A DNA stretch of 64,000 nucleotides from a virus (lineage: Duplodnaviria; Heunggongvirae; Uroviricota; Caudoviricetes): IMG/VR virus record IMGVR_UViG_2925891887_000001; one strand, written 5' to 3'. This document shows positions 16,965-60,693 of the stretch, piece after piece. The position numbers and the translations under genes were made by a program. The notes under the pieces were generated by a model, which had not been told where the DNA came from, made no database searches, and worked only from the letters and a program-made list of their open reading frames with translations. Every line of letters starts with the position of its first letter. Within the stretch, counting starts at the first letter, position 1.

Positions 16965-19900
16965 ATGTGGTACAGGGAAGGTACTATCACATTTACACAG
17001 GGCAGCAATACTCTGGTTGGGGCAGGGACAGCCTGGAACGTAACAGCTAATGGTGTGTTGCCGGGGATGATCGTCATTGGCCCCGACAATAAGCTGTATG
17101 AGATCAAGCGCGTAACCAGTGATACGAACATTGTTCTCTCAGAACCTTATACCGGCGAAACTCAGTCTGAAGTTCCGTGCCGAATCATTACGACCTATGA
17201 AGGCGACTTAACACAGTTTAGCGCGCGCTTTACTGCGCTAATGTCGCGTATGTCGGCTGATTCCAAGTCCATACGCAGTTGGTTGACTGCGCTGGATGAG
17301 GTGACAATCGAGCGTGAAGACGGTACAGAAGTGACCGTTAAGCCGCTAATGCAGATCGTCAACGAGCACAACGAAAACGTTGAGTGGTATAAAAATAACA
17401 CTGACGCGATTGATGCTGCTGGCGACAAAGCTCGTGAGGCGGCGGCCAGTGCTGCCGCAGCAGCAAAAAGCGCCAATGCCGCTGGAGAAAAAGCCTCTCA
17501 AGCGTCTCAAAGTGCATCCGCTGCGGCATCCTCACAAAGTGCCGCAAGTGCGAGTGCAACTGCTGCGAAAAAATCTGAAACGAATGCTGCAGCGTCACAA
17601 AAATCTGCAGCCACTTCTGCATCCACCGCGACCACGAAGGCGTCAGAAGCTGCCACCTCAGCCCGGGATGCGGCGGCCTCAAAAGAGGCAGCGAAATCAT
17701 CAGAAACGAGCGCAGCCTCGAGCGCCAGTAATGCCGCTTCCTCGGCAACGGCGGCAGGAAATTCCGCGAAGGCGGCAAAAACGTCCGAGACGAACGCCAG
17801 GTCTTCTGAAACGGCAGCGGGACAGAGCGCCTCGGCTGCGGCAGGCTCAAAAACAGCGGCTGCGTCGTCTGCCAGTGCCGCGTCAACAAGTGCCGGGCAG
17901 GCCTCAGCCAGTGCCACCGCCGCCGGAAAATCGGCAGAAAGTGCCGCATCGTCTGCTTCAACTGCCACAACGAAGGCTGGCCAAGCCACTGAACAGGCCA
18001 GCGCAGCAGCGAGGTCTGCTTCCGCAGCGAAGACATCCGAAACGAACGCGAAAGCGTCGGAAACCCGTGCAGAATCCTCAAAAACGGCAGCCGCATCGTC
18101 CGCCAGTTCGGCGGCGTCATCGGCATCATCGGCGTCTGCTTCAAAAGATGAGGCGACCAGACAGGCGTCAGCAGCGAAGGGCAGCGCCACGACGGCATCC
18201 ACGAAAGCAACAGAGGCGGCAGGCAGTGCGACGGCAGCATCTCAGAGCAAAACTGCTGCTGAATCCGCTGCGACCCGTGCGGAAGCTGCTGCTGATCGTG
18301 CTGAAGAGATTGCCGGTGCAGTTGCGATGGAAGACGCAAGCCTTACAACTAAAGGTGTTGTGAAACTTAGCAGTGCTGTCGACAGCACCAGTGAATCGCT
18401 GGCCGCAACGCCAAAAGCAGTTAAAGCAGCCAATGACAATGCGAATAGCAGGGTGCCATCTAACCGAAAAGTTAACGGTAAAGCACTGACTGCGGATATC
18501 AAATTAACGCCGAAAGATATTGGTACTTTAAATTCAGTAACGATGTCTTTCTCTGGCGGGGCAGGGTGGTTCAAACTGGCTACGGTTACCATGCCACAAG
18601 CGAGTTCCATCGTTTACATCGCATTGATTGGTGGCGCTGGTTACAACGTCGGCTCCCCACATCAGGCAGGCATTTCAGAACTGGTTCTACGAGCAGGCAA
18701 TGGAAACCCCAAAGGGATTACAGGTGCTTTGTGGAAGCGTACAGCTGTCGGATTAACGAATTTCGCCTGGATCAACACATCCGGCGATACATATGATATT
18801 TACGTTGAGATTGGCAATTATGCGACTCGTGTAAATATCCATTGGGATTGTACTGCAAATGCGACAGTTTCTATTTATACCTCGCCAACATATTCAGCGA
18901 GTAAGCCTTCCAGCGTTACCGATGGTGTTGTTTATACGATGTATAGCACACATCAGAAACCGACGCCGTTAGATATTGGAGCACTGCCAACAACCGGAGG
19001 AACAGTTTCAGGTCCGTTGTCTGTTACAGGTGGATTAACTGGTTCATTGAATGGTAATGCAAGTACAGCCACGAAATTGCAGACGGCAAGATCTATCGGT
19101 GGAGTTGTTTTCGACGGTTCTGCAAATATTAACCTTCCAGGTGTAAACACTACGGGTAATCAGAACACCACTGGTAATGCTGCAACTGCTACAAAACTTC
19201 AGACTGCAAGAAAAATATCCGGTGTTCCATTTGATGGTTCTACTGATATCACTTTAACCGCTGCGCATGTTGCCGCTTTCGCAAGAAGGGCAACAGGGTC
19301 ATATGCGGATGCTGATGGTGGCGTGCCGTGGAATGCTGAATCTGGTGCTTACAATGTAACTAGAACAGGCGACACCTATATTCTTGCCAACTTTTATACC
19401 GGTGTAGGTAGTTGCCGGACCCTGCAGATGAAGGCGCATTACAGAAATGGAGGTCTGTTCTACCGTTCCTCAAGAGATGGCTATGGTTTTGAAAGTGGTT
19501 GGGAGCAGGTTTACACGACTGGATTTATGCCTCAGCCGGCTGATATAAACGCGCCAACCGCTGCCGCTGGATGGTTAAATAGTGGTAACGGAACGGCATT
19601 TACGACTGCTCAATTTATAACTTGGCTAAATAATCAGGGGGCATTTACAAACAAACATTGGATCGCACGGTGCTCATGGACTTACGCCAACAATAATTAT
19701 ATAGACGACACTGGTTGCGGTAGGATCGATCTATCTGGTTCCGTGATTGAGGTGTTTAGTAATAAGGCAACAAGCCACTACACTATTCGTGTTACAACGA
19801 CAACAACATCGGGTCATGGTGGTGTTAACAATGCGGAATTTATTTATGTGTACAATGGAAGTGATTATGCACCAGGCTGGCGTCGTTCTTATAACACTAG

Positions 19901-23939: not shown

Positions 23940-24163
23940 GTCGATGATTGATGAGTGGTCTCAGTTTACCTTTTATCCTAAAGATGGCATCTTCACTCAT
24001 ATACACGCCTGTTCACTCAAGCTCATGTTGAATCATTTAGTAATTTGATGTAGATTTATTAGGCATCCACGTAAGTGGGCACATACAGGCTACGCATCCT
24101 CGTAGCCTTCAACCCCGAGAGGGGTGCCGCAATGACACTTGTGTTAACGGCTAAGGTGGATAT

Positions 24164-24583
24164 ATGCTAAATTATCATGACAATACGCGTTCTATGCAGA
24201 CGATCCGCACCAATACTGCGGTCATCGACAGCTTTCCTATGCGTATTCACAACAGTGAAGACGCAGTAGAAGTGCGACGTATGTTGTGCCGTGAATCAGC
24301 TAACCGCCAGCACTTCATCGTCACTTTTAAGAGCGATGTGGCGCGTGCCGAAAAGATCTCTAATTCTACGTCACTGGTTAAACCGTTGGCCGAGGTTGTC
24401 GCTAACGGTAAACGAACCTCTTTTGTTTTAGATGTTGCTGAACAATATCCTGACTTGAAGTGTTTAGATCGTGATATTTCTTCACGAATCAAACAAGTTG
24501 TAGAGTCTTTTATGAAGAAATTCTGTAAAATCGATGATATGGAACCATCAACGGCACAGAATACTTCATGGCACCATCTCTAA
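24164..24583 (+). CDS. hypothetical protein
   Basis: 139-aa ORF, first gene after a 220-bp non-coding gap following the lysis genes. Confidence 0.5.
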   Translation: MLNYHDNTRSMQTIRTNTAVIDSFPMRIHNSEDAVEVRRMLCRESANRQHFIVTFKSDVARAEKISNSTSLVKPLAEVVANGKRTSFVLDVAEQYPDLKCLDRDISSRIKQVVESFMKKFCKIDDMEPSTAQNTSWHHL

Positions 24584-25341
24584 TTGGTCAGGCGAACAGA
24601 TTAATCCCTGAAATAGAAGACTACAGCAAGGTCTTGTCTGAAATGCCGAGAGCGACGAGAATTATCGCTCTCGGTGAGTTCTATTTTATCTCCCGAGGTT
24701 TCGATCTAATTCGATTTACCGAATACGAGCTTGTTGATTCGGCCTATGAACGCTGTATTGTTGGCGAGTGTCTTGAGTCATGTGATCCTGATTACCAAGA
24801 GCAGGAAGTTAAGCGACTCAAACGTGCTGGTTACACACCTCTTGAGATAGGAGCAGAAATTGAATCCTACAAGTTGCATGTGGGGCAGCCAGTCCAAACA
24901 GTCTTCCGCGTGGCCTACTGCGAGTTTCCAATCAAGGATAAATCTGGAGTAAAAGTCAGCGCCAAGCAGATTAGAGGGGTTTTTACTCATGCTGATTATA
25001 TGGGATTAGGCATCGCAAGTTTTGCTTACCTTTATCTCGTAGATAAGTATCAGTACTTGGTTTGCGATACGTTACAGACGGTAAAAGGCGCAACTCTTTG
25101 GGCTGTGAGTATGCGCAAACATGGACTGGTCGAAATTTACGATACGAAGAACGAAAATTTTATAGAGGAATTGGGTGAGGATGCCTGTGGCGTAAGTGGT
25201 TTTATTCCGTGGGATATCGGTAAGTCTGACGGAGGCCAGATGCGAAGACGTGAAGAGTGGGGGACTAATAAAATCAATCTCACCCCAGGTGCTTGTACTC
25301 ATATAGTGAACATTCTGACTAAACGATCTATGAATCAATAA
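24568..25341 (+). CDS. hypothetical protein
   Basis: 257-aa ORF followed by a hairpin plus T-run terminator. Confidence 0.55.
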   Translation: MAPSLIGQANRLIPEIEDYSKVLSEMPRATRIIALGEFYFISRGFDLIRFTEYELVDSAYERCIVGECLESCDPDYQEQEVKRLKRAGYTPLEIGAEIESYKLHVGQPVQTVFRVAYCEFPIKDKSGVKVSAKQIRGVFTHADYMGLGIASFAYLYLVDKYQYLVCDTLQTVKGATLWAVSMRKHGLVEIYDTKNENFIEELGEDACGVSGFIPWDIGKSDGGQMRRREEWGTNKINLTPGACTHIVNILTKRSMNQ

Positions 25342-25342
25342 A

Positions 25343-25366
25343 CCCGCTACGGCGGGTTTTTTGTTA
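25343..25366 (+). terminator. Rho-independent terminator
   Basis: CCCGCTACGGCGGG hairpin followed by TTTTTTGTT. Confidence 0.7.
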
Positions 25367-25490
25367 TTAAGCCCCCCCTATGTACCTATCATTAAACCTT
25401 TACACCGCAGCCGTAGGCATTTAGGCTATATCACATATAAGAAAACAAGTTGTTTCAGACGATAATTATATACGCAAAGGGAACTCTCCA

Positions 25491-26159
25491 ATGACCAAGA
25501 TCTTTGTGGTTGGCGGCACAAAGGGCGGGCCTGGCAAATCCACCGTTGCCCAGCAAATTGCCGTTTGCCTGAAAGTCAAAAAGAAGAAGAAGGTTTATAT
25601 TACCGATATAGATATTCAGCGCACGACAACGAGCTGGTGTGAAGACCGTCGACAGAACGAAGACCTTGAGCTGATTCCTTTCGCATACGTTCAGGATGAC
25701 ATCATTAAGCACCTAAAATCGCTTCAGGGTAGAGCTGAGTTTGTAGTGGTAGATGCTGGTGGCTTCGACTCCGAAATTCAGCGACAAGCGATGCTGATGG
25801 CTGACGTTATCATTATCCCGCTGCGTCCTAAGCGTCGTGATTTGAAATCTTTACGTGACATCGATCCTATTATCGACAATGTTCGCAATGTAAACGATAA
25901 AGTGAAGGTCCGCGCGGTCATGAACCAGTGCCCGGCTTTGCCATCACAAGTGTCTCGCATTCTGGCGGCTAAAGAGATTGTTGAGACGTTTGGCATCGAG
26001 TCTGCGCCAGTCAATCTATATAACCGCAACGTCTATGATGATGCGGAAGAGTCTGGTCGTTCTATCTTTGAAATGACCGGTAGCGAGCGCGACAAAAAGG
26101 CGGAAGCCGAGTTTGAAGAATTTGTAGATTATCTGTTGAGTCTGGAGGAAGAAGAATAA
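25491..26159 (+). CDS. parA: ParA-family partition ATPase
   Basis: N-terminal deviant Walker A (GGTKGGPGKST), about 220 aa, followed by a small overlapping gene. Confidence 0.75.
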   Translation: MTKIFVVGGTKGGPGKSTVAQQIAVCLKVKKKKKVYITDIDIQRTTTSWCEDRRQNEDLELIPFAYVQDDIIKHLKSLQGRAEFVVVDAGGFDSEIQRQAMLMADVIIIPLRPKRRDLKSLRDIDPIIDNVRNVNDKVKVRAVMNQCPALPSQVSRILAAKEIVETFGIESAPVNLYNRNVYDDAEESGRSIFEMTGSERDKKAEAEFEEFVDYLLSLEEEE

Positions 26160-26518
26160 TGTCCATGAAAATGGGTGACCTAGCAAAGCGCAAAGAGCCT
26201 GATGCACCGGCTAAGAACACAACTCCTTTGCGCCAACCAGTCAGACCACAGGGACGCCCGACTCGTGGCAAAGAGAAAATTAAAAGCCGCACAATGTCAC
26301 TGGAGGACGAATACTTCGAACTGCTGGAGATGATGAAGTTCATCCCTCGCTTCGAGAAGTTCACTCGTTCTGACGTGATTCGTGCTGCTATTTTCCATCT
26401 TGCGGAGAAGACACCGCAGGAAATCGAGGACATCGTGAAACTTAACGAGGCGATCACAGCTGCCGATGTCACGATGCGTACCGATGAAATTAAACGCGAG
26501 TTGATGAAGAAAGGGTGA
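26159..26518 (+). CDS. small partition/centromere-binding protein candidate (ParG-like ribbon-helix-helix)
   Basis: 119 aa, basic N-terminus, RHH-like segment (RTMSLEDEYFELLEMM...SDVIRAAIFHL); start overlaps parA stop. Confidence 0.5.
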   Translation: MSMKMGDLAKRKEPDAPAKNTTPLRQPVRPQGRPTRGKEKIKSRTMSLEDEYFELLEMMKFIPRFEKFTRSDVIRAAIFHLAEKTPQEIEDIVKLNEAITAADVTMRTDEIKRELMKKG

Positions 26519-26569
26519 TTATATTGGGCGTTTGTTACGCCCAATATATGAGTTGAAGGATAGACACCA

Positions 26570-28276
26570 ATGGAATCGATAGAAGTATTTTTAAAAAATT
26601 TTTTGGACTCAGATCATCGGGTTGCTGTCATAAAAGGAAATTGGGGAGTAGGTAAAACGCATTATTGGAATAGCTTTTATACTAAACATTCTAAAAAATT
26701 AGATTTTAATGCATATTCATATGTTTCTTTGTTTGGAATAAATTCTATTGGAGACATTAAAAAAGCTCTTTATCATTGTGCCACACCAATTAATGAAAAG
26801 AAATATAAAGAACTGATTTTATCTGAAACGGATCGAACTATGATTCGTTATAGAAATGGGTTTTGGGGATGGTTGAAATACAACTCCTTGTCAAAATTTA
26901 TAATACATTTTGGAAAGAACGATTTTTTTGGGTTCAAAACTGATAATCTGCTGTCATCTCTTGAGTATAAATTTGTTAATAATTATTTGGTTTGCATTGA
27001 TGATATTGAACGAAAAGGTAGTGCGCTAGAAATTAAAGAGATTATGGGGGTAATTGATGAGTTGGCAAGAAGAAAAAATTGCAAGGTTGTTCTAATATTA
27101 AATGAAGATAACTTACATGAAGAAACTGCACAACAACAGTTTTTAGAGTATAGAGAAAAAATAATTGATGTGGAAATAAAATACGATCCCACGCCTGAGA
27201 AAAACTTAAGAAAAGTTTTTTATGAGACTGACCCTGATTTTCTTTTGTTAAAAAACCTAGCAAATGATTTAAACATCAAAAACATTAGAATATTAAATAA
27301 AATAAAATCATCTCTAGTTATATTTAGAGATGTGCTAAAGTTAGCAGAGGATAAGGTTAGAGAAAGTTTTATTAATAGATTGGTCTTATTTTCAGTGGTT
27401 TACTATTTTGGTGTTCCTAGCGTTGATTATGCTTCATTTAAGGAGTCAATCAAAAATATACATGCATTCGACTATATGTTAGATGATAAAGATGAAAAGG
27501 AAGAAGTTAACTCTGTATATTCATTTGTTAATAGCCTTGATGTTATTTATGAACGAGCAGAAAGTGCTTTCGATGATGATATAGATTTTTACCTTAAGAA
27601 CGGTTATGTTTCTTCTGAAAGCAATATTCTAAATATAATAAAAGAAAAAAATGAACAATATAGAGATAATAGGGTTTTATGTGAGGTTTATAAAATTTGG
27701 GATGTTTTTAGAAACTCTTTTAAAGATAATGAATCAGAGTTTATTTTTCAAATTGAGCGCGTAATTAACGATAGTCTGTTGCGTATACCAATTGGACAGT
27801 TCGTAGGTTTAATAAATGTCCTAATTAAATTGGATAGAGATTGTAATAATATTATAGAGGCATATGCAGATGCTTTTGTTAATAAAGACAATGCGTATGC
27901 TACATTTAATTCTTTGCGAGTAGAGATCTTCGGAAATGAAGAATTAGGTTTCAGAATTGAAAAAAAATTGAAAGATAGAAATCCAGATGACTATAACTTA
28001 GATAAAATTATAAAAAAAATAGCTGGTGGAAGATTTAACCATAGTGATGTGAATATTCTTAACAGTTTTTCTAAAGATGATTACGTAAACTGGATATTAT
28101 CCTGTGATCAGGATGCTTTGAATTTAGTAGAAGAGACTATGCTCAAGTTCAAGGGTATGCAACACCCGACAGACGAACAGAAGAGCATCACTGATAAAGC
28201 AATAGAAGCTTTGGAGGAAGTTGCTTCAAAATCAACACTTAATAAGCTGCGTGTTAATAAAATACTCAATCATTAA
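26570..28276 (+). CDS. KAP-family-like P-loop NTPase, strongly AT-rich cargo gene
   Basis: Walker A in KAP style (GNWGVGKTHYW), Walker B (LVCIDDIER); codon usage and base composition differ sharply from neighbours. Confidence 0.6.
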   Translation: MESIEVFLKNFLDSDHRVAVIKGNWGVGKTHYWNSFYTKHSKKLDFNAYSYVSLFGINSIGDIKKALYHCATPINEKKYKELILSETDRTMIRYRNGFWGWLKYNSLSKFIIHFGKNDFFGFKTDNLLSSLEYKFVNNYLVCIDDIERKGSALEIKEIMGVIDELARRKNCKVVLILNEDNLHEETAQQQFLEYREKIIDVEIKYDPTPEKNLRKVFYETDPDFLLLKNLANDLNIKNIRILNKIKSSLVIFRDVLKLAEDKVRESFINRLVLFSVVYYFGVPSVDYASFKESIKNIHAFDYMLDDKDEKEEVNSVYSFVNSLDVIYERAESAFDDDIDFYLKNGYVSSESNILNIIKEKNEQYRDNRVLCEVYKIWDVFRNSFKDNESEFIFQIERVINDSLLRIPIGQFVGLINVLIKLDRDCNNIIEAYADAFVNKDNAYATFNSLRVEIFGNEELGFRIEKKLKDRNPDDYNLDKIIKKIAGGRFNHSDVNILNSFSKDDYVNWILSCDQDALNLVEETMLKFKGMQHPTDEQKSITDKAIEALEEVASKSTLNKLRVNKILNH

Positions 28277-28448
28277 TAGATTATGACCTGCTTCCGTATG
28301 TATTTAATAAGTTACTTATTATTTGTATATACAGAAGCAGGTCTTTTAAAGACGCCCACCAGAACAAGTCCCTTCCGTTTCCACTTCCAAAAACTGCCAC
28401 CAGTCGCTATCATCCGCTCATTGTGATAAGTAAGTAACTACCTACCAG

Positions 28449-29198
28449 GTGAGCCACATGAGCCAAATCTTTTTCGATACCATCGACAACGACCAGTACG
28501 ACTTCATGACAGAGTGGAATACCGCTGTTATGGACAAGTGGGTTGCTGAAAACATTGGTTTGTCGCGCTGCAAAGACGAGGCTGAACTGTTTGAGACGAA
28601 GTGGTTTGATTACCGCGATATGCATCCTCTCATGGCCACCTGTCTGTTTACGGAGGCATACAAACGTCAGTACTCAAATATCATGCTGACGCACGGTCGT
28701 GAACACTTTGAAACAGCTCCGTTCACCACCGGGTTAAAACGCTTGCCTTATCAGGAGTTGTCGACTGCTAATAAAACGTCGCTATGGAAAGCACGCCAGT
28801 TTGCGGATCGCTATTGCTGCTCATACGACTACTTTATCTCCACTGTTCTTTCCGCAGCTGCACGACGTCTGTGGGACAAGCTGCCTCGCCCACAGCATTT
28901 GTGGCAGCCAGAACTGATTGAGATATTTGAAGAGAAATTAGCCAGACGCGCAACAACCCGTCTGGATGACTCTCTGGTTAGCTTTAAGCATATGGGAGAC
29001 ATGCAGTTCAACCCGATTCAGGAAAGCTATTTTGAGTGGATTCTGGAGCGTTTGCGCACCATCCCTCGCAGTAAGCGCATACGCGCAATTTTCTCCGCTA
29101 TCTGGCTAATGGAAATCGTTCCAGAGCGCCTTATTTCCGCCCACTTTCCAGAAGAACTGGAAGAAGCACGGCGGTTTATTGATCCCCTATCTAATTAA
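28449..29198 (+). CDS. hypothetical protein (upstream of replicative helicase)
   Basis: 249-aa ORF; GATAAGTAAGTA motif upstream. Confidence 0.5.
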   Translation: MSHMSQIFFDTIDNDQYDFMTEWNTAVMDKWVAENIGLSRCKDEAELFETKWFDYRDMHPLMATCLFTEAYKRQYSNIMLTHGREHFETAPFTTGLKRLPYQELSTANKTSLWKARQFADRYCCSYDYFISTVLSAAARRLWDKLPRPQHLWQPELIEIFEEKLARRATTRLDDSLVSFKHMGDMQFNPIQESYFEWILERLRTIPRSKRIRAIFSAIWLMEIVPERLISAHFPEELEEARRFIDPLSN

Positions 29199-29219
29199 CT
29201 AATACTAGAAAACAATTTG

Positions 29220-29232
29220 TTTAAAAAACAAA
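29220..29232. promoter_or_regulatory. AAACAATTTGTTT palindrome upstream of the helicase gene
   Basis: 13-bp perfect palindrome; near-identical copies at 48876-48888, 57309-57321, 42839-42852 and 25442-25455, each 20-45 bp upstream of a start codon. Confidence 0.5.
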
Positions 29233-29241
29233 GGAAAGCAC

Positions 29242-30582
29242 ATGACCGAACTTTGCCATACAGGACGCGGGCTGTCCGAAGAGTTTGATGAAGATTTCCA
29301 GAACAGACTGACGGCATATTTTTGTCGTGATCACGAGTTTCTTACTCGTGCGGGAGATCTGGTTGTGCCTAGCCAATTTGCCAATGCGGCCAATGCCATA
29401 TTGGTTAATATGGTTTCGGGCTATTACCGTATGTACAAGAGCGCGCCCTCTTCATCTGCAATTCTGGATATGCTTAAGCGTGCGAAACGCGATAAGACTA
29501 TCCGTGAGGAACTATTCGCCGATGTTGTTGTTGCGTTTAAGCGCATCCTTGCAGAAAAATTGTCCGATACCTCGTACATGGTTGACCAGGTATCAACCTT
29601 CGCAAAAAGCGTAGCGTTTGATGATGCTCTGATTAAGGCTGCTGAACTGAAAGAGAAGGGCGACTTTCAGGGGGCGATGGCAATCATGGCCAAGGTTCAG
29701 CAGATTGGATCGAACGAAGCGACCGGAATCTATGACTACTACACCTCCGCAAGTGAGCGATTGAAAGCGCGTGAATATGAGGCTTCAGAGGAGTATGTAC
29801 CAAACAGTATTACAACTGGACTCCCTCTTCTCGATAGGTTGCTGTACCAAAAAGGCTGGGCAAAGCGCGAAATGGTGCTCTTCATGGGGTTCGCTAAATC
29901 CGGTAAATCGACCGCAATGGGTGAGTTTTCCATAAACGCAACGCTTGCTGGCTACAATGTTCTGTATCTCTCGCTGGAGGTTCACACCAACATTTTGTCC
30001 GACCGTTTTGATGCAAGATTGTCGGAGACGGAAATGTCCAAGTTGGTGGAACGGCGCGATGAAGTTCATCGTAAGTTGGCAGAGTTGGGAGCCTCTAAGG
30101 GGATTGGTAGTTTGTGGGTTGTTGAGCGTCCGTCAGGAAGTATGTCACCGGCAGATCTGGACCGTATGCTTAACAGCATGAAAGCCAACGGCATGGTGCC
30201 TGACATGGTTGTTGTCGACTACGCAGATTTGATGCGTGCCAGTTATGACCTTCGTGATGATCGCGCCAACATTCGTAGTATCTACACCGATTTACGTGCT
30301 CTTTATGACAAGCATAACGTTGCTGGGATCACGGCATCGCAGACAAACCGTGAAGGTGGCGCGTCAGAAGTTGCCACAATGATGCACGCTGCCGACAACA
30401 TCGAAAAAGTACGTATTGCTGACCTGGTAATAACGATCAACAAAACCGAAGAAGAAGAAGCGAAAGGAGAGGCTCGTCTCTACTTTGCCGGTTCACGTAA
30501 CCAGCAGGGAGGGATCAGCATTCGCGTTAAACAAAACCTCGAACAAATGCGCTTCATTGAGCGAATCTTAGACGTTACCTAA
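29242..30582 (+). CDS. DnaB-like replicative helicase
   Basis: Walker A (GFAKSGKST), DnaB-type Walker B (VVVDYADLM), about 446 aa. Confidence 0.75.
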   Translation: MTELCHTGRGLSEEFDEDFQNRLTAYFCRDHEFLTRAGDLVVPSQFANAANAILVNMVSGYYRMYKSAPSSSAILDMLKRAKRDKTIREELFADVVVAFKRILAEKLSDTSYMVDQVSTFAKSVAFDDALIKAAELKEKGDFQGAMAIMAKVQQIGSNEATGIYDYYTSASERLKAREYEASEEYVPNSITTGLPLLDRLLYQKGWAKREMVLFMGFAKSGKSTAMGEFSINATLAGYNVLYLSLEVHTNILSDRFDARLSETEMSKLVERRDEVHRKLAELGASKGIGSLWVVERPSGSMSPADLDRMLNSMKANGMVPDMVVVDYADLMRASYDLRDDRANIRSIYTDLRALYDKHNVAGITASQTNREGGASEVATMMHAADNIEKVRIADLVITINKTEEEEAKGEARLYFAGSRNQQGGISIRVKQNLEQMRFIERILDVT

Positions 30583-30591
30583 AAAATAAGC

Positions 30592-40824: not shown

Positions 40825-41928
40825 ATGAAAAATAGCTTTGACAGAGCACGCGCTGCGGAGAACACCTCAAAAGAGGCGATTGAGTATCTCGAAAGAGCAT
40901 CTCAAATGCAGGCCGTTATGATCTCGCAGGTCAGCAATGACATGAGATTCTCGGACGCATTCATGTTATTCACTCGCTTATCTCTGCTGATAACAAGACG
41001 TCGGCCAGAGATCGCTGTTCATTGTATTTTGATACATGTTTTGCCGCACATTGCCGATGTAAAAGTAAGTGACATTAATAGGTTCATGGTGAACCAACTG
41101 GTCAACCCACTAATACTGGATGGCAAAATTGTTATGGGCCGCCGCGTTTTCTCTCTGATGAAGCAGTTCCTTAGCTGGTGCGCCTTCCAGGGGATGATAG
41201 ACGTGTCACCGTTAAACGATATGTCACTAAACAAAGTTGCCGGTGGCGCAAAGCCCACACCTCGCGAGCGGAAGCTGACCGACGCAGAGGTATGGGTGTT
41301 CTGGAATATATGGGACTACTTCAATGTGTGCGCTGGTACAAAATGGGCGGCCAGGCTGTGTCTTGTATCCGCAAGACGACCTGACGAAGTACTGCGGGCT
41401 AAAAAAAGTGAGTTCAATCTTAAGCGTGGGGTTTGGAATCAAGGCAAGAGGAACAAATCTGCCCGTGAGCATTCGCTGCCTTTAAGCACATTAATGCGCA
41501 CATGTATTGAAGAGTTGTTCGAATACGGTAAAGGCAGCCAGTGGCTCGTGCCTTCGAATAAAAAAATCGGGAAAGACCTTCCTATGTCTAAAGTGGCAAT
41601 AGCCCAGGCATTACGTCGTATCCTGGAACGACCAGAACTGATGGAGCTTGAGCCATTTACACCCCGAGACTTGCGCCGTACTGCGCGTAGTTACTTCCCA
41701 GCATTAGGCATAAGCCAGGAGGTCTCACGCAAAATCATGAACCACAGTCTTGAGGGGATAGATCGAGTCTACGACCGGCACGATTATATGGACGAGATGC
41801 GAGACGCCTTAGAAAGTTTCTCGACGTACATCGCATCAATCGTAGAGCAACCGGATTTAGACGAAATTGACCACAAATTCAAGGGAGATCGTCTATCAAC
41901 AGAGCTTATTCGTGTAAATTTTTCATAG
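40825..41928 (+). CDS. tyrosine recombinase/integrase
   Basis: C-terminal catalytic signature (RDLRRTARSY ... HS..G.DRVYDRHDY); 367 aa. Confidence 0.75.
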   Translation: MKNSFDRARAAENTSKEAIEYLERASQMQAVMISQVSNDMRFSDAFMLFTRLSLLITRRRPEIAVHCILIHVLPHIADVKVSDINRFMVNQLVNPLILDGKIVMGRRVFSLMKQFLSWCAFQGMIDVSPLNDMSLNKVAGGAKPTPRERKLTDAEVWVFWNIWDYFNVCAGTKWAARLCLVSARRPDEVLRAKKSEFNLKRGVWNQGKRNKSAREHSLPLSTLMRTCIEELFEYGKGSQWLVPSNKKIGKDLPMSKVAIAQALRRILERPELMELEPFTPRDLRRTARSYFPALGISQEVSRKIMNHSLEGIDRVYDRHDYMDEMRDALESFSTYIASIVEQPDLDEIDHKFKGDRLSTELIRVNFS

Positions 41929-42309
41929 AGACTTTATGGCCTCAACAACCTTTTGTGATGCGCCTTTCTCTTTACCGAATCGCTCGTTATATGCAGCAAG
42001 AACCTGTTTTTCGTCCTCGTTAAGAGGAGCGGTGCCTTCTTTGTATAAAAATGCTGCGAGTTCAGGTTGGCGTTCTTCCAGCACCATCATCATAAGACGA
42101 CTTGGCTCAATACCCAGCGCCAGCGCCAACGGACGAACCTTATCGATAGGCAAAGGAATTTTGCCACTTTTAATTAAAGAAAGGTTGTTGGCATTTTTAT
42201 AACCAATAAGTCTGGCTATTTGGGCCTGACTCATAGGTGAGGATTCAATCAGCCCTGCGATAAAAGCGGCATAGCGACTTTCTATAAATTCAATCTTGTT
42301 GTCAGACAT
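41923..42309 (-). CDS. HTH (XRE-family) transcriptional regulator
   Basis: Helix-turn-helix segment QAQIARLIGYKNANNLSLIKSGK; divergent from 42560..42772 across an AT-rich intergenic region. Confidence 0.65.
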   Translation of the reverse strand: MSDNKIEFIESRYAAFIAGLIESSPMSQAQIARLIGYKNANNLSLIKSGKIPLPIDKVRPLALALGIEPSRLMMMVLEERQPELAAFLYKEGTAPLNEDEKQVLAAYNERFGKEKGASQKVVEAIKSL

Positions 42310-42559
42310 TGTTACAACCTTTGCGCGTTCAATTCTCTCTGGTAAGTGCTTACCGATATTACATCAAAGGTTAGGGTTGTAAAGCTATTATCATTTTTTC
42401 GATAGGCACTTAAAAGACCGGTTAAAGGCCATTGCACGGAGAAAAATTAGCCCAAAACAGGTAAGAAAATTAACTTGCATATGATATGAATGTATTCAGT
42501 ATTGATATAAATTTTAGTAGTATTCCTTACCATAGTATAAGTTAGAATGGATTGATTGA

Positions 42560-42772
42560 ATGAACACCACTATTTCCAGCCTAATCGCTCTTGAGATCGG
42601 ACACGTACAGAAATTAGCTGATGAGTGTGTAGCTGACATCCTCACCGATCTACCGAATGAGCAGATTCAGGTTGGTGTGAATGACACAACTGGCTTTATA
42701 TTCGAACTTAACAACAAACGCTTCACGCTTCTCAATATCGGCTCCGGGTCTTTAGCCGTCAGAATCTGTTAA
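42560..42772 (+). CDS. hypothetical small protein
   Basis: 70-aa ORF divergent from the HTH regulator gene. Confidence 0.4.
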   Translation: MNTTISSLIALEIGHVQKLADECVADILTDLPNEQIQVGVNDTTGFIFELNNKRFTLLNIGSGSLAVRIC

Positions 42773-42870
42773 CCCCTCTTCTCCCTGCGCGAATGGCTTA
42801 GTTCCCTGTTCGCGCAGTGCTACATTAAACACACTAGTAAATAATTTGTTTTCATAACAAAGGATTAGCC

Positions 42871-44979
42871 ATGTCTAAAAAACGTTCCATCAAAGAGGTT
42901 CAGGACTTCCGTGACAGTGTAAAACGAGTAGTCGCTCTCCTTTCAGGTAAAAACATCCCTGTTGCAGAACGAGGGGACGACGCTTATGTACGCTATAACG
43001 ATGATGGAGAGCCAATTCTCGTAAACATCCCATCAATCCCGGATAACGCAACACCGGCATTGATGAATGCTGTGCGCGGATTTCTCGATCATGAGGTTGC
43101 TCACATTTTGTTTACCGATATTCGTGTGTCCAACAAAATGAGAGAAAAAGGACGCGTTCCTTCCTGGTCGCTATGGAATGCCTTAGAAGACGTGTTCATC
43201 GAGCGAAAAATGGGTCAGGTCTTTAACGGAACAAGACGTAATCTGATGGCAACTCAGCGCCTTATAATCGAAAAAGTCTTTAAACCAAAGGCTTCAGAGG
43301 CTATTGCTTATTGTGGCAAAGATCAGCGCGCGCTTTTTCTAAACTTCTTTCTCTGTCCGGTTGTAAGAGCCTGGGATGGCCAAGCACCGTTCGTAGATTT
43401 CATGGATGAACATTGGCCTGTCATTGAGAAACCAATTTCATTATTAAAAGAACATGGTATCGATGTGGCCGTGCGTAACATGTCTTGCACCGAGGATTGT
43501 GTAAAGGTGGCTGCGACCATAGCTAAGATCCTCAAAGACACTGAAAGTGAAAGCAAAGGTAAGGAGTCAGCTCCGGGAAAAACTTCCGATCCTTCAGACG
43601 CTGACCAGACGGATGCCTCTGGAGAAAACAATGAAGACAACGAAGATCATGAGACTCCCTCAGTGTTAGATAATCACAAATCTATCAAATCAGAATCACA
43701 TAGTAAGTACAAACATGATAATAACAACAGTGATGATTCAGATAATTCTGAATCATCAGAAACAATATTCGATGATACAGAAAATGATAAAGAGGTATCA
43801 GATTCTGATGCTTCTGATAACGCGGCGTCAGAATCATTAACCGCTGACCACGAAAAAAGAAAAACGACAGAAGACGGCTCTTCAGATATCCCAACTCCGT
43901 CAAAAATGAGTCTGGAAGAGGCTTTAGAGGAGCTGGATAGCATAGAAGATGAAGTCGGAGGCATGACAGAAGATGCTCTATCCGAAACGATTAAAAGCGA
44001 GTTAACAGAAAGCTCGAAAAGCGAATACAGGCCATACAATCGCTCATACGACTTCATCGGCTCGATTGATCAGGCAGAAGCCCATATCAAACGGCTTATT
44101 AAAACATTCTCCGATATTGATTTGGGAGGATATCCAATCAGCCGCTATCGCATCGTTCCTGAAGGCAACCAGCTCTTCGACAAATATATTGAAAAGCATC
44201 TTTCGTCAGGTGTTTCGTCGACGCTGGCAAAAGACCTGGAGCGAGCAATAGCAAGCAGAAACAGAGTTCAGTTTATACCGGGCCAGCGTCGGGGGCGCAT
44301 TCATGGTTCTAGTATCTACAGATTAGCAATGAATGATGCTCGCGTGTTTCGTAAAAAAGAAGAATCTAAAGCCGTTAACGCCTGTGTTCAACAAGTGATT
44401 GATTTATCAGGTTCAATGAGTGGTATAACGATTAAACTGGCTCTTGCAAGTGCATATACCATCGCCGATGCCCTTGATCGAATAAATGTTCCCAACATTA
44501 TCACTGGCTTCACTACATTTGGTAGTCATATGGCGGCAGGAGAACTTAAGGCTGTCAAGTATGAGTTCTCTCGCTTTGAATCTTTAATGCTACCTATCAT
44601 CAAAAATTGGAATGAAAAGGTAAATTCTCGCGAAGTTCGCTCACGTATGGGGTGCGTAGGCTACACATTCCCACTTCTTAATAACGTGGATGGTGAAAGC
44701 ATAGCCAGCCTTGCATCGTTATTTTCCGGTCGCATGGAGGACAGGAAGATCATGCTTGTTCTGAGTGATGGCGCGCCGTGGGCTGTTGGGAGAGGTTTTG
44801 ACGCTCATTTGCGTTCAGTTGCGAAGCAAATTGAAACGCAGACTGATATTGATTTGATGGCAATTGGCATCATGACTGACGCACCGGAGAGATTTTACTC
44901 AAATCATGCCCTGGTAACGAGCGTTGATAGTCTTGGTTCATCTGTAGTTACTGAACTATCTCGTATCATTTTAAAGTGA
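42871..44979 (+). CDS. von Willebrand factor A (vWA) domain protein with acidic Asp/Glu/Ser-rich linker (CobT-like)
   Basis: MIDAS motif DLSGSMSG in the C-terminal part; long acidic low-complexity segment; paired with the downstream AAA+ gene. Confidence 0.65.
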   Translation: MSKKRSIKEVQDFRDSVKRVVALLSGKNIPVAERGDDAYVRYNDDGEPILVNIPSIPDNATPALMNAVRGFLDHEVAHILFTDIRVSNKMREKGRVPSWSLWNALEDVFIERKMGQVFNGTRRNLMATQRLIIEKVFKPKASEAIAYCGKDQRALFLNFFLCPVVRAWDGQAPFVDFMDEHWPVIEKPISLLKEHGIDVAVRNMSCTEDCVKVAATIAKILKDTESESKGKESAPGKTSDPSDADQTDASGENNEDNEDHETPSVLDNHKSIKSESHSKYKHDNNNSDDSDNSESSETIFDDTENDKEVSDSDASDNAASESLTADHEKRKTTEDGSSDIPTPSKMSLEEALEELDSIEDEVGGMTEDALSETIKSELTESSKSEYRPYNRSYDFIGSIDQAEAHIKRLIKTFSDIDLGGYPISRYRIVPEGNQLFDKYIEKHLSSGVSSTLAKDLERAIASRNRVQFIPGQRRGRIHGSSIYRLAMNDARVFRKKEESKAVNACVQQVIDLSGSMSGITIKLALASAYTIADALDRINVPNIITGFTTFGSHMAAGELKAVKYEFSRFESLMLPIIKNWNEKVNSREVRSRMGCVGYTFPLLNNVDGESIASLASLFSGRMEDRKIMLVLSDGAPWAVGRGFDAHLRSVAKQIETQTDIDLMAIGIMTDAPERFYSNHALVTSVDSLGSSVVTELSRIILK

Positions 44980-45074
44980 ACAAAACAGCCTTAACGATAA
45001 GTAACCACTTACGATATATAATGATATATTTATATAAGAAGTTGAACGCTCATTAGAGAACAAAGGAAAAACGC

Positions 45075-46310
45075 ATGACGACTACTGCACTGCAAAATGA
45101 AAAAAATCCTTCTGATTACCTTGTTTGCAAGTGGTGCGGCAAATCATTTCACTATTTTAAGTCCCATGTAGCCAATGGTAATTGCGAGGGCATTCCTGAG
45201 TCAGTAAAAGATGCCGATCCTGACACCGTACTGAAAATGTACACAACGCAGTTTCCAGATGAACCAACGCTATCGAAAAAGGCACTTGATGCAATTCAAG
45301 CTAAACGTGCCGAGCAAAAAAGCGAAATGGCCAAATCTTCTGGCTTGACCAGTAGCCCTGGCTACACAGGCACAGTTGAGTACAAGACAGATCTGGTCGC
45401 AGCTCACGAACTGCTAAACGTAACAGTGGAAGAACTCGGAACAAAACGTGGGACGCCGCTCATGGTTAGCGTCAACGTCAATACGCCGTATCCAGAGTTC
45501 GTTCCCGAAGTGAAGAAAGGCTACGTATATGGCGACTTCGAACTGATCAAAGATATTTTCATGATGCTTGAACTTGGCATACCTGGCTATTTGTGGGGTC
45601 ATGCAGGAACAGGCAAATCGTCATTGCCTACACAGCTATGTGCTTTGCTCAATCGTCCGTTGATCCGTGCCCAACATACAGCATCAATGGAAGAGGCACA
45701 TGTTACGGGGCAAATTCTGGCGCGTGATGGCTCTACGTATTTCGAACCTGGCTTGCTTGCGCTCGCAATGAAGCATGGCTGGGTTTACCTCGCGGATGAA
45801 TACGACTTTGCGTTTCCACAAATTCTTGGCGTGTATCAGCCAGTGCTGGAAGGTGAAGCGTTGGTCATCAAAGAGGCAACTCCAGAATGGCGTCGCATTA
45901 CTCCGCATGAACGGTTTGCTTTCATTGGCACTGGCAACACGAACGGATCTGGTGATGAAACCGGCTTGTACCAGGGTACAAACATCCAGAACGCCGCGAA
46001 CTTTTCGCGTTTTGGCATCGTTTCGAATGTGAAATACATGAGCAAAGACGCAGAGATCAACATGTTGACAAATGCAGGCATCGTGGATGAATACGCTGAA
46101 AAGATGGTTAAGTTTGCCGGTATCGTTCGCGATGGATACGAAGAACACCTCATTAGTCAGCCAATTGGCCCTCGTGAACTTTTGTTGTCGGCCAAGATTG
46201 GAATGATGCGAGGCGACTTTGTGACAGGTATTGAGCGTTCTTTCATTAACAAACTCCCTTCAGCTTCTGCACAAGCGGCTCGTGAAGTTGTTCAAAAAAT
46301 ATTTGGTTAA
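45075..46310 (+). CDS. MoxR/CobS-like AAA+ ATPase
   Basis: Walker A GHAGTGKSSL, Walker B-like VYLADEYD; 411 aa. Confidence 0.65.
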   Translation: MTTTALQNEKNPSDYLVCKWCGKSFHYFKSHVANGNCEGIPESVKDADPDTVLKMYTTQFPDEPTLSKKALDAIQAKRAEQKSEMAKSSGLTSSPGYTGTVEYKTDLVAAHELLNVTVEELGTKRGTPLMVSVNVNTPYPEFVPEVKKGYVYGDFELIKDIFMMLELGIPGYLWGHAGTGKSSLPTQLCALLNRPLIRAQHTASMEEAHVTGQILARDGSTYFEPGLLALAMKHGWVYLADEYDFAFPQILGVYQPVLEGEALVIKEATPEWRRITPHERFAFIGTGNTNGSGDETGLYQGTNIQNAANFSRFGIVSNVKYMSKDAEINMLTNAGIVDEYAEKMVKFAGIVRDGYEEHLISQPIGPRELLLSAKIGMMRGDFVTGIERSFINKLPSASAQAAREVVQKIFG

Positions 46311-46490: not shown

Positions 46491-48854
46491 ATGAAGGCAC
46501 TGATGGTTCGAACTGACTTCTCACTTGGGGAGTCGGCTCTAAAAGCAGAAAACGCGGTGAAGATTGCCAGAGAAGCTGGCTACACCGCTGTAATTTCAGC
46601 AGATAGCATGAATATTGCGAGCGTTATTCCACTACAACGTGCCGCTGGTGACGACATGGCGGTTATTTGTGGTGTGAAACTAAACATTGTTGATGATCCC
46701 ACATACGAGCACCGGGCTAAACTTGCTAAAGAATCTATGAGATGTATGGAATCATTAGAGCGAGGACGTAACTACTCGTTTACCGCTCTAATTAAAAATG
46801 AGAAAGGATATCGCGACATCTGCGAACTAATGACGGCGGCCAACACACGAGAACAGTTCTACTTTGTACCGCGTCTCTCGCTCGAACAGTTGGTTTCTAC
46901 ATATGCCAAAGGCAACATCATCCTGCTTACTTCCGACATCGGTAGCGTGTTCCAACGCAACGATTTTGCAAAAATCATAAGCACACTGATTACAGCGGGT
47001 GGAAAAGACAACTTCTATAGTGTGGTTTATCCGCACCCTACCCCATTCTACGACCAGATTAACGTCCGGGCGATGAAAGTCGCCAGCGCATTGAAAATAG
47101 AGCCAGTGGCGTTCTATCCCGCTTATTACGAATCGATCGACGATGCAGACATTAAAGACATTGCGCACATGGTTACGAACAACATCAAAATCGACCAGCC
47201 GCATCGTCTGCGTATCCCCCACCAGCGAGATAACGCCGTCAATGGTCGCCGCCATCTCCTTGAGGCGCTTAAAGCCTTCTCCGTTCGCATGGATGTGCCG
47301 GTAACAGCTGCAATGGCCTCAACAACGCAGGATACCATTATCGATGCCTGCACATGGCGCTGGCATGAATTGCCGCCAGCACTGCCAAAGATGGCAGACG
47401 ACGAGCCTGCAACGCTGATGAAACTGGCTGTTGCAGGGCTGCGTAAACGTCTTACCACAAAAGAGTTTGGCTACACACCACCTGCTTCTGAGAACAGGGT
47501 TTATGTTGAGCGGCTAAAGTACGAAATGGACACGCTGACTCGCCTGGGATTCTGTGGTTACTTCCTGATGGTGCGCGATCTGATGAATCATAGTCGTGAA
47601 ACTGGCATTCCCGTTGGGCCTGGTCGTGGTTCCTCTGCCGGTTCTCTGGTGGCGTGGTGCATAGGCATAACCAACGTCGACCCAATCCGTCACGGTCTTC
47701 TGTTTGAGCGTTTCATCAACCCTGAGCGTCTCGACTTGCCGGATGCGGACTTGGACTTCAGCCAGGCACGTCGCCATGAGGTGATCGAGTATCTGAATGA
47801 ACGCTACGGCGAAGATTACGTTGCAGGCATTCCGAACTTCACCTACCTGGGCGCAGCCTCTGCACTACGTGATACCGCTCGTATTTATGGTGTGGAGTCC
47901 GCAGATATGGCGGTATCAAAAGAGCTGAAGAACGTCGAGGATGATAGCCTTCCATTGGAGGAGCTGCGCGAACAACTGGCAAGTCTCGACAAATACGCAA
48001 CAAAATATCCTGATGCATTCAATGCAGCCTGCAAGTTACAAAGCCTTATGCGTGGCTTTGGTAGACATGCGGCAGGGATGATCGTAGCAGGTGTTCCTCT
48101 GACAGAACGTACACCGGTTGAACGCCGTGGTGACGCGCGTTGTATCGCATTTGACAAGCGTTACTGCGAGGCTATGGGCCTAATTAAGCTGGACGTGCTT
48201 GGCCTGGCAACTCTCGATTTGCTCGATAGTGCAAAACGCTACATAAAAGAGAACACAGGTGAAGATATCAATCTTGATGCCATTTCTCTTGAAGATCGCA
48301 AGGTGCTGGATGGTTTTGCTGCAGGGTATACACAGGGCGTATTCCAGCTTGAATCAGGCCCAATGCGCAAGCTGCTTAAAGATTTAGGTGGTGGAATTGA
48401 GCCAATGAGCTTTAAAACGGTCGTCGCTACAACTGCGCTCTTCCGACCTGGCCCGATTCAATCCGGCATGTTGGACGATTATGTGTCCGTGGCCAAAGGC
48501 TTCATGGCCCCACATTCCTTACACCCAATGCTGGACGACATCTCTCGCGACACAAACGGAGTTCTGATTTATCAGGAACAGATCATGGCTGCTACGCGAA
48601 TCTTGGCGGGGTTCTCAATGGCGGAAGCAGACTCGGTCAGGAAAGCGATCGGGAAAAAAGATATGGAGAAAATGAAATCCATTGGCGGCGACTTCATTAA
48701 GCGAGCGGAGGAAGGCTGGGTGACAGTGTCACTGGATGATGGTTCTACGAGAAAAATCCATAAAGCAGCACGCCTACTTTGTGCTGATGGTGAGCGTCGC
48801 ACTTATGCCGAAGCAATGGCAATAAATGCCGACATAACGAGCTTCGATATTTGA
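46491..48854 (+). CDS. DNA polymerase III alpha-type (DnaE-like) replicative polymerase, N-terminal part
   Basis: Polymerase core block GRGSSAGSLVAWCIGITNVDPIRHGLLFERFINPER; ORF ends in non-conserved sequence just before the finger-domain motif. Confidence 0.75.
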   Translation: MKALMVRTDFSLGESALKAENAVKIAREAGYTAVISADSMNIASVIPLQRAAGDDMAVICGVKLNIVDDPTYEHRAKLAKESMRCMESLERGRNYSFTALIKNEKGYRDICELMTAANTREQFYFVPRLSLEQLVSTYAKGNIILLTSDIGSVFQRNDFAKIISTLITAGGKDNFYSVVYPHPTPFYDQINVRAMKVASALKIEPVAFYPAYYESIDDADIKDIAHMVTNNIKIDQPHRLRIPHQRDNAVNGRRHLLEALKAFSVRMDVPVTAAMASTTQDTIIDACTWRWHELPPALPKMADDEPATLMKLAVAGLRKRLTTKEFGYTPPASENRVYVERLKYEMDTLTRLGFCGYFLMVRDLMNHSRETGIPVGPGRGSSAGSLVAWCIGITNVDPIRHGLLFERFINPERLDLPDADLDFSQARRHEVIEYLNERYGEDYVAGIPNFTYLGAASALRDTARIYGVESADMAVSKELKNVEDDSLPLEELREQLASLDKYATKYPDAFNAACKLQSLMRGFGRHAAGMIVAGVPLTERTPVERRGDARCIAFDKRYCEAMGLIKLDVLGLATLDLLDSAKRYIKENTGEDINLDAISLEDRKVLDGFAAGYTQGVFQLESGPMRKLLKDLGGGIEPMSFKTVVATTALFRPGPIQSGMLDDYVSVAKGFMAPHSLHPMLDDISRDTNGVLIYQEQIMAATRILAGFSMAEADSVRKAIGKKDMEKMKSIGGDFIKRAEEGWVTVSLDDGSTRKIHKAARLLCADGERRTYAEAMAINADITSFDI

Positions 48855-48902
48855 GAATTAATTTATAAGATAAGAAAACAATTTGTTTAGTGAGTCTTAG
48901 AA

Positions 48903-57288: not shown

Positions 57289-57337
57289 TCGCAATTATCT
57301 TATTAAGAAAATAATTTGTTTAAAAGGATAAGAAAAC

Positions 57338-60531: not shown

Positions 60532-60551
60532 GTGGACACCTTTGTCATTCA

Positions 60552-60653
60552 ACCGCTGACAGCATACTTGATTTGCCGCTGACAGAATACCAAAAACAGT
60601 TGGCAGCATACGGTGAACCGCTGACAGACTATCAATTACCGCTGACAGCATAC
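60552..60653 (+). repeat. iteron array upstream of rep (origin-proximal, about 5 copies at roughly 21-bp spacing)
   Basis: Copies at 60552, 60575, 60596 (degenerate), 60617, 60638 of the same 16-bp unit. Confidence 0.8.
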
Positions 60654-60693
60654 ATGAACATGACTTCAGACCAGTCGTGGCGCGGCTTACAGC

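Follow-up and report, generated by a model that had tools for sequence, protein, structure and literature searches.

The closest described relatives of the partition locus analysed here are the type Ib systems, in which the centromere/operator lies upstream of parA and is bound by a small ribbon-helix-helix (RHH) protein with a flexible N-terminal tail (PMC3074162). For ParB of pCXC100, the RHH fold was shown only by crystallography, and the centromere of that system was located in the ~90 base pairs (bp) upstream of parA (PMC3074162). Here, a 64,000-nucleotide (nt) stretch of the virus record IMGVR_UViG_2925891887_000001 (Caudoviricetes; the whole stretch is called the window) was analysed, which by its matches and gene content is an Escherichia coli phage-plasmid of the SSU5/pHCM2 type. 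It carries a parA gene, a small coupled partner gene and, just downstream of both, a perfect inverted repeat (IR) that an earlier, sequence-only reading of the window had proposed as a candidate centromere or operator. The best overall explanation, to which we give a probability of roughly two in three, is a conserved par cassette that works as a type Ib partition system through the leader upstream of parA, with the IR as an RNA hairpin associated with the cargo gene that follows.

The predicted ParA was compared with known partition ATPases. It lacks the helix-turn-helix (HTH) or DNA-binding domain found at the N-terminus of type Ia proteins, as small type Ib ParAs do, and its deviant Walker A motif, GGTKGGPGKST at residues 8-18, fits the KGGxxK[ST] pattern of type Ib. 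Matches were obtained with the Pfam families MipZ, AAA_31, CbiA and ParA and with phrog_164 (ParA-like, 4e-51), and the score against the NCBIfam model ParA_partition was 115.7 bits, under its cut-off of 180 bits. The best relatives in the PDB were ParF of TP228 (4dzz) and the ParA 5u1g (E 1.2e-10), residues 9-199 being aligned with residues 8-189 of ParF. Because the protein is small, has an N-terminal deviant Walker A motif and has ParF and 5u1g as its closest solved relatives, ParA is counted as type Ib-style; the ParA-type ATPase of the sequence-only reading was thus confirmed as a ParF-like protein. As in type Ib systems, the small partner gene lies directly 3′ of parA in the same operon, and this synteny was found in all relatives examined. 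Taken as a whole, the assignment of the par genes to a predicted partition-type operon, with a ParF-like ParA and a small coupled partner on an iteron-replicon phage-plasmid, is supported. The coordinates of the features discussed are listed in Table 1.

Table 1. Positions of the par cassette, its surroundings, the dispersed palindrome and the replicon in the window (aa, amino acids).
Feature	Position	Strand	Description
Intrinsic terminator of the upstream gene (24568-25341)	25340-25365	+	stem 25340-25359, AAACCCGC/GCGGGTTT, then T-run
par leader	25384-25490	+	107 bp; sole non-coding DNA always travelling with parAB
Palindrome AAACAA-G-TTGTTT	25443-25455	.	in the parA leader; ~8-20 nt downstream of the inferred transcription start
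parA	25491-26159	+	222 aa; predicted small Walker-type partition ATPase, ParF-like
Small partner gene	26159-26518	+	119 aa (RefSeq start 26165, giving 117 aa); putative centromere-binding protein
Inverted repeat (IR)	26520-26548	+	perfect 12-bp stem, 5-nt loop TTGTT
KAP-family P-loop NTPase gene	26570-28276	+	568 aa; Pfam KAP_NTPase; PADLOC PDC-S49 2e-21; cargo, candidate anti-phage defence gene
Long backbone palindrome	28285-28343	+	59-bp near-perfect, then TTTT; -28.3 kcal/mol, z -7.8
Second exact palindrome copy, AAACAA-T-TTGTTT	29210-29222	.	20 nt 5′ of the DnaB-like helicase start codon
One-mismatch copy AAATAA-T-TTGTTT	42839-42851	.	19 nt 5′ of the CobT-like gene at 42871
Third exact palindrome copy	48876-48888	.	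15 nt 5′ of the HNH/NUMOD3 endonuclease open reading frame 48903-49637
One-mismatch copy AAATAA-T-TTGTTT	57309-57321	.	17 nt 5′ of the DUF7238 gene at 57338
Rep_3-type initiator gene	59437-60651	-	
Iteron-like repeats, about five	60552-60657		ACCGCTGACAGCATAC-like, 21-23 bp spacing; overlap the 5′ end of the Rep_3 reading frame as called

The partner open reading frame (ORF) overlaps the parA stop codon in TAATG, the RefSeq start being two codons further on. The protein belongs to phrog_5111, where no function is assigned, and its family is tiny: 25 clusters were found in 5.8 billion proteins, and an exhaustive hidden Markov model (HMM) search of 1.84 billion representatives returned 18 of them and no bridge to any known family. 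In every locus examined the gene follows a ParA of 221-229 aa within the same SSU5-like synteny, which holds even for members 25-40% identical to the window protein (down to 25-31%). A deep alignment keeps three parts, namely an N-terminal M-G-D-L-A-K-R/K, a variable linker and a block I-K-S-R-T-M-S-L-E-D-E-Y ... F-T-R-S-D-V-I-R-A-A-I, with I41, R44, S47, E49, R70, D72 and R75 invariant. The layout of the partner is an MGDLAKR N-terminus, a basic linker modelled with low confidence, the RHH-like segment IKSRTMSLEDEY...FTRSDVIRAAI and two extra C-terminal helices.

The conserved block looks like an RHH protein's strand followed by helices A and B, with support that is weak but convergent. A match to aCcr1, an RHH family, had an E-value of 2.3e-4 but, at 21 bits, stayed under the cut-off of 60, and Pfam RHH_1 matched two distant members over the same block at E 0.005 and 0.11, both below the cut-off. 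Several results weigh on the other side. The window protein has no Pfam match (E up to 10; the same was recorded for every family member) and no PDB match by phmmer or profile search, and hhalign comparisons with ParG and Arc were negative (ParG probability 0.1). AlphaFold monomer models, with a predicted local distance difference test (pLDDT) score of 65-67, gave no fold match, which is a weak test because a monomer cannot form the RHH ribbon. The partner is not placed in the ParG family, since no similarity to ParG was detectable. The RHH-like protein of the sequence-only reading therefore stands as a plausible one: the ORF is present, and the sequence pattern and weak HMM matches favour it, but the stronger tests gave no confirmation, and an RHH fold of the partner is rated as probable. 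In ParB and ParG-type proteins, an N-terminal peptide is the element that stimulates ParA, and by analogy the conserved N-terminal basic peptide of the partner is likely to be such an element. ParG and omega provide the basis for this comparison (PMC3074162).

The extent of the conserved DNA was determined by comparison with relatives. Homology around par, compared among about 770 related plasmids, starts at ~25384 and stops at 26514-26530, i.e. at the partner stop codon, and these limits mark out 25384-26518 as a self-contained conserved cassette for partition, made up of the leader, the predicted ParF-like ATPase and the translationally coupled partner. To the left, most relatives lose homology before ~25384. 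The terminator that the sequence-only reading had placed upstream of parA is real, with its stem and T-run (-15.8 kcal/mol, z -4.6), and lies outside this module. The leader core (25396-25460, 65 bp) showed 97.6% mean pairwise identity in eight relatives, whose parA genes reach 83% identity over their length but 62% when third codon positions are taken alone, and the 30 nt adjoining the parA start codon are 81% identical. Across 71 viral loci, variation of the core was nearly confined to positions 11-14, 38 and 63, four single-locus variants touching others. A candidate sigma-70 promoter was read from the sequence, with TTTACA (25399-25404), a 17-nt spacer and TAGGCT (25422-25427); an alternative is TAGGCA-N16-TATAAG.

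The leader, the only conserved non-coding DNA of the module, lies upstream as type Ib sites do; it is the more likely seat of the centromere and the best candidate for the operator and centromere region. Two points speak against such a role: part of the conservation may simply be promoter sequence, and no tandem or direct-repeat array of the TP228 parH or pCXC100 nine-repeat type was found near par, the leader having one 13-bp palindrome and short TAGGC-type boxes. A search of the literature for a centromere, operator or palindrome motif of SSU5 or pHCM2 gave nothing relevant, nor was a published stability or incompatibility test of the cassette found.

Compared with ParF-ParG-parH of TP228, the locus has a ParA closest to ParF, a small downstream partner with a probably flexible N-terminus and an RHH-like C-terminal part, and a candidate cis site upstream in the promoter region, which is consistent with autoregulation. 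On the other hand, the partner has no detectable ParG similarity and bears two extra C-terminal helices, there is no array of ACTC tetramers like that of parH, and the host is a phage-plasmid. With ParA-ParB-parS of pCXC100, it shares a small centromere-binding protein (here a putative one) of an orphan family and conserved non-coding DNA that lies only upstream. However, the pCXC100 centromere consists of nine contiguous 9-bp direct repeats, whereas the SSU5-type leader, known from sequence alone, has the palindrome and the TAGGC-type boxes. Under the type Ib scheme, dimers of the partner would bind one or more sites in the near-invariant leader, and this binding would repress the par promoter and form the partition complex. 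The MGDLAKR peptide would then stimulate the ATPase of nucleoid-bound ParA-ATP, leading to separation of the plasmid copies.

The IR was first described as ATATTGGGCG-N7-CGCCCAATAT at 26521-26547. It is present and larger than had been stated, with perfect 12-nt arms, TATATTGGGCGT (26520-26531) and ACGCCCAATATA (26537-26548), and a loop of 5 nt; it begins 2 nt past the partner stop codon and ends 21 nt short of the KAP start codon. Its predicted RNA fold has -17.9 kcal/mol (z = -3.9 versus shuffles). Perfect hairpins with a stem of at least 12 bp and a loop of 3-10 nt occur at three distinct sites of the window, counted as 4 stem/loop rows where a mononucleotide shuffle gives 0.13, and those with a stem of at least 10 bp at ten distinct sites (17 rows, against 0.6 expected). 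With such numbers the IR is not a product of chance, yet it is not unique. Two other perfect hairpins without a T-run also directly follow stop codons, at 30588 (helicase gene) and 50810 (dnaE). No second copy of an IR arm beyond chance was found in the window, and an Rfam scan of 24000-29300 gave chance-level matches only.

The distribution of the IR was examined among replicons carrying par. Only 3 of the 72 viral (IMG/VR) loci with a full partner gene contain the exact IR, and about 22 of the 796 plasmids with the partner gene do so, together with a full-length E. coli-type KAP gene; the IR is thus not co-inherited with the par genes as a centromere would be. The 72 loci have 33 different junction sequences, and in 63 of them some hairpin of -12 kcal/mol or lower lies within 45 nt of the stop codon. 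In SSU5 and Klebsiella pJN2-26, whose par regions are 86% and 80% identical to that of the window, there is no spacer, because the stop codon is already overlapped by the following gene (TGATATG). In pA98_p4, with par DNA 99.6% identical, a different terminator-like hairpin, GAGGTGC...GCACCTC-TTTCT, stands there, and other E. coli relatives with par DNA 98-99.6% identical lose homology at the stop codon. Further junction hairpins in relatives are AGAGGCGTC-GAAA-GACGCCTTT and TAGGCGC...GCGCCTTTTATT. Because the partner protein is 98-100% identical in E. coli elements, 97% of which lack the IR, the IR is not the centromere.

The commonest junction hairpin in the first 45 nt past the partner stop codon of the IMG/VR loci is ATGCATTGGCGC...GCGCCAATGCAT. 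Its loop is found either way round, as GTACATT and as AATGTAC, with the arms and flanks identical, which suggests that template switching or recombination inverted the loop of a perfect palindrome. The arms of this hairpin resemble those of the window IR (ATTGG(G)CG).

The DNA that follows the par operon was also compared. The distance from the partner stop codon to a conserved backbone motif ranges from ~116 nt to ~2.1 kb across 64 viral loci, and by this comparison the interval 26519-28343 of the window is a cargo hotspot, with 0 to ~2.1 kb of cargo in relatives. In the window it holds the KAP gene, which is AT-rich as read from its letters, and in other relatives DUF2971 or genes without known function. 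Variation also affects the region upstream of the leader, where some relatives have GNAT/DUF1778 toxin-antitoxin genes and the window has two unknown ones. In cargo-free relatives, the par operon runs almost straight into the long palindrome and T-run that end the hotspot (~35 nt past the stop codon in AnCo3). Escherichia, Salmonella and Klebsiella all keep this palindrome, which in pJN2-26 has paired substitutions; it is read as the ancestral terminator of the par operon. It was also considered as a centromere and rejected in favour of a terminator, on account of the T-run, the paired substitutions and its failure to align in a distant K. quasipneumoniae relative. Beyond it, a conserved stretch at 28344-28448 with three tandem TTCCNN units (TTCCGTTTCCACTTCC) and TAAGTAAGTAAC lies upstream of a 249-aa gene (phrog_2500) and may be a promoter or a binding site for the replication-gene block.

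Wherever the IR was found, it was accompanied by an E. coli KAP allele (the 3 viral loci and the ~22 plasmids). Between KAP alleles that are 83% identical overall, the IR is identical at 29 of 29 positions, while 5 of the next 21 nt, up to the KAP start, differ; identity of this kind amid 17% allele divergence indicates that the IR is under constraint. In distant KAP versions this position is taken by ordinary terminators that are unrelated in sequence, GAAGGCGC-GTTAG-GCGCCTTTTTCTT in Klebsiella and AAAAGGCGC...GCGCCTTTTA in Citrobacter. Neither a scan nor inspection revealed a promoter between the IR and the KAP start codon, where a ribosome-binding site is present. These comparisons place the IR at the left edge of the cargo segment, as a part of the KAP cargo and not of par.

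We propose that the IR would act as a gene-end or intercistronic hairpin in RNA, without a U-tract, which would protect or define the par message at its 3′ end and/or set and dampen the read-through that reaches the cargo. As in Rho-independent terminators and gene-end stabiliser hairpins, a GC-containing perfect stem-loop (12 perfect bp, 5 of them G-C pairs, a stem-loop such as intrinsic terminators have) comes right after a stop codon, and relatives have canonical terminators in the same place. Unlike Rho-independent terminators, the IR has no U-tract 3′ of its stem (TGAGTTG; TGAGTTGAAGG), was not listed by the terminator scan and falls outside the definition of a terminator. A further difficulty for the hairpin is that the loop is as perfectly kept as the stem, and in two allele groups only, which would also suit a protein-binding DNA site.

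The alternative that survives best is that the IR is a control element specific to the KAP gene, either an operator or a translation-modulating structure, unrelated to the par mRNA. Its strict co-occurrence with the E. coli KAP alleles and its position 21 nt 5′ of their start codon would fit such an element, as would the identity of stem and loop across alleles while the adjoining nucleotides diverged. However, the more distant Klebsiella and Citrobacter alleles have unrelated, ordinary terminators there, no regulator gene accompanies the cassette, and no properly spaced promoter-like hexamers were seen around the IR. We regard control of KAP as unlikely, at somewhat less than one chance in five. 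Less probable still, at under one in ten, is that the IR is a functionless by-product of cassette exchange in the hotspot, be it a terminator remnant without U-tract or a quasi-palindrome from template switching. The hotspot is highly mosaic, and the other class of hairpin seen at this junction, whose loop lies either way round between identical arms, points to palindrome dynamics at the DNA level. Against this, full identity of the IR would have a probability of ~0.005 if it evolved like its surroundings, and almost every cargo variant (63/72) keeps a strong hairpin.

We also considered that the true partner of ParA is one of the proteins with a ParB/Srx N-terminal domain encoded elsewhere on these elements, with a conventional parS. 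Two such adjacent proteins are encoded at 17853-19201 of the complete relative NZ_CP020118.1 and others in Moellerella pW18-2-b (44125-45500), and a preprint uses an SSU5 'parB', the gene not being specified, as a screening marker (10.1101/2025.09.12.675607). The ParB/Srx proteins of the two elements may correspond to the gene so named, and are by their context unlikely to be the partner of ParA. These genes lie ~35 kb from parA, beside genes for a DEAD-box helicase, an ABC-type ATPase and terminase, which is a context of phage packaging or DNA modification. ParF-like ParAs, moreover, pair with small adjacent proteins, and the 119-aa gene shows coupling to parA as well as synteny with it in all the relatives examined. 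A distant ParB/Srx partner is accordingly given about one chance in twenty. The lowest standing of all goes to the view of the sequence-only reading that the downstream IR is a centromere or second operator bound by the small protein, comparable to parC2, which in pB171 lies downstream of par2; comparison with relatives already refutes this view for the most part. As a perfect palindrome the IR is statistically non-random, it lies 2 nt past the operon and it is perfectly kept between two diverged cargo alleles, but it is missing from ~97% of replicons with near-identical parA and partner, which have unrelated hairpins or no spacer, homology ends at the stop codon, no motif is shared with the conserved leader and no further copy occurs in the window, and type Ib centromeres lie upstream (PMC3074162). 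From the partition module proposed in that reading, the ParF-like ParA, the coupled small partner and the terminator and palindrome upstream were retained, and the downstream repeat as centromere or operator was not.

Besides the preferred explanation of the cassette, the palindrome in the leader was followed through the genome. It had been described as AAAACAAGTTGTTT at 25442-25455 and was found there, with its symmetric core one base shorter. AAACA-N3-TGTTT has three exact copies in the window against 0.09 expected, two more have one mismatch, and all five lie 15-36 nt 5′ of start codons. In NZ_CP020118.1, 19 copies were counted against 0.25 expected, each just 5′ of a gene, and they share a context of a -10-like GATAAT or TCTAAT ~13 nt upstream followed by (A/T)AGA. 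Among the sites there are those at nrdB, ahead of the terminase gene and in a small-gene cluster. In the 71 viral loci the arms are kept, whereas the central base can change, being G at parA but T, A or C at the helicase gene. AAACA-N3-TGTTT is kept upstream of parA in the distant relatives L012, L013 and L101, and the palindrome stands 5′ of both parA and the helicase gene as far as K. quasipneumoniae pKqq_SB1124_3 and L101. A role of the AAACAAGTTGTTT palindrome as an RNA hairpin was rejected (-0.5 kcal/mol, no better than shuffles), and because it does not fold as RNA it is taken as a protein-binding DNA site. The 13-bp palindrome, the clearest candidate for an operator site in the leader, is a likely operator that is not par-specific, and it looks like the operator/promoter motif of an undescribed regulon.

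We were particularly interested in which protein could bind this motif. The partner is one candidate and an HTH regulator beside the integrase gene another. A 128-aa minus-strand ORF (41923-42309) adjoins the integrase gene; in relatives, the corresponding ORF carries the annotation of a transcriptional regulator. The window ORF faces a 560-bp intergenic region that ends in the palindrome copy before the cobT-like gene, and 41923-42870 may be an immunity region and a source of the palindrome-binding protein. For the partner, the predicted DNA-reading strand I-K-S-R-T-x-S-[LM]-E is constant down to 25-31% overall identity. In Moellerella pW18-2-b, the partner protein is present and the dispersed motif is absent in the 50 kb examined; the parA leader there has two exact AAATAACAAGGC direct repeats, which have the AACAAG core in common and occur nowhere else in that 50 kb. 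In a relative of the Acinetobacter AB group, a different promoter palindrome is used and no such par exists at the syntenic position upstream of the helicase gene. Comparison of binders across these genomes is suggestive, not decisive.

On the distant AB-group phage-plasmid NZ_CP069498.1 of Acinetobacter pittii, a RepM gene lies upstream of the helicase gene, where the window has par. A recurring palindrome TAAGCGCTTA, (A/T)AAGCGCTTA, stands upstream of several genes of this plasmid. The different palindrome of the Acinetobacter relative shows that the phage-plasmids of this broad group each have a promoter-associated palindrome of their own.

Systems with dispersed operators or centromeres include KorB-IncC of RK2 with 12 OB palindromes, omega-delta of pSM19035, SopB of N15 with four dispersed inverted repeats and the C1 operators of P1; the KorB site, too, is palindromic and 13 bp long, and omega, an RHH protein, serves in regulation as well as in partition. 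The SSU5-type elements resemble them in having a short palindrome at many promoters, 19 in NZ_CP020118.1, one of them in the par promoter. However, the ParA is ParF-like and not IncC-like and the partner has neither an HTH nor a ParB fold, and the likeness is one of layout and not of homology. It is a tentative possibility, to which we give somewhat less than one chance in three, that the partner is a KorB/omega-like dual-function protein binding AAACAA-N-TTGTTT or AACAA(G) half-sites. Hints of this are the constant DNA-reading strand, the AAACA-N3-TGTTT kept in the parA leader of three diverged clades and the direct repeats in the Moellerella leader. The ~19 copies would then be both a dispersed centromere for the ParF-type ATPase and operators linking phage gene expression to the plasmid-maintenance state, at sites such as parA, the helicase and cobT-like genes, nrdB, the terminase region and the small-gene cluster.

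The assignment of the window to the SSU5/pHCM2 type was based on both the par region and the gene content. The 1.3-kb par region matches SSU5, PhiR41_1, Cyrano and further SSU5-like phages as well as 773 plasmids from Klebsiella, Escherichia, Enterobacter, Salmonella (including pHCM2 of S. Typhi), Citrobacter and others, nearly all ~105-115 kb in size and non-mobilisable. Genes for tail fibre, lysis, DnaB-like helicase, primase, ligase and integrase fit this family, and so do CobT/CobS-like, DnaE, gp32-like, RecA and Rep_3 initiator genes. The iteron replicon that had been noted earlier is supported by the Rep_3-type gene and its ACCGCTGACAGCATAC-like repeats. GATC-containing repeats of 12-14 bp lie at 60713-60756, just past the end of the Rep_3 ORF that bears the iterons, and rep probably has its true start codon downstream of 60651. 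The dnaE gene (Pol III alpha) is split into two ORFs, 46491-48854 and 49634-50803, by the free-standing HNH/NUMOD3 ORF, which has its own copy of the 13-bp palindrome; in NZ_CP020118.1 dnaE is uninterrupted. The RecA-like protein (53781-56120) bears an intein whose homing-endonuclease domain is of the LAGLIDADG type (Pfam RecA, Intein_splicing and LAGLIDADG_3).

The partition module of SSU5-type elements appears to be an ordinary one of known kind. A likely role is given to phrog_5111, a protein family annotated 'hypothetical' on ~800 sequenced Enterobacteriaceae plasmids, including pHCM2 of S. Typhi. Read-through from the par promoter apparently feeds the candidate defence genes of the hotspot, and the 65-bp invariant leader could be used as a marker for typing or incompatibility. 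Only the dispersed palindrome could be of wider interest: if the partner does bind it, segregation would be coupled to the control of phage genes in the SSU5-type family.

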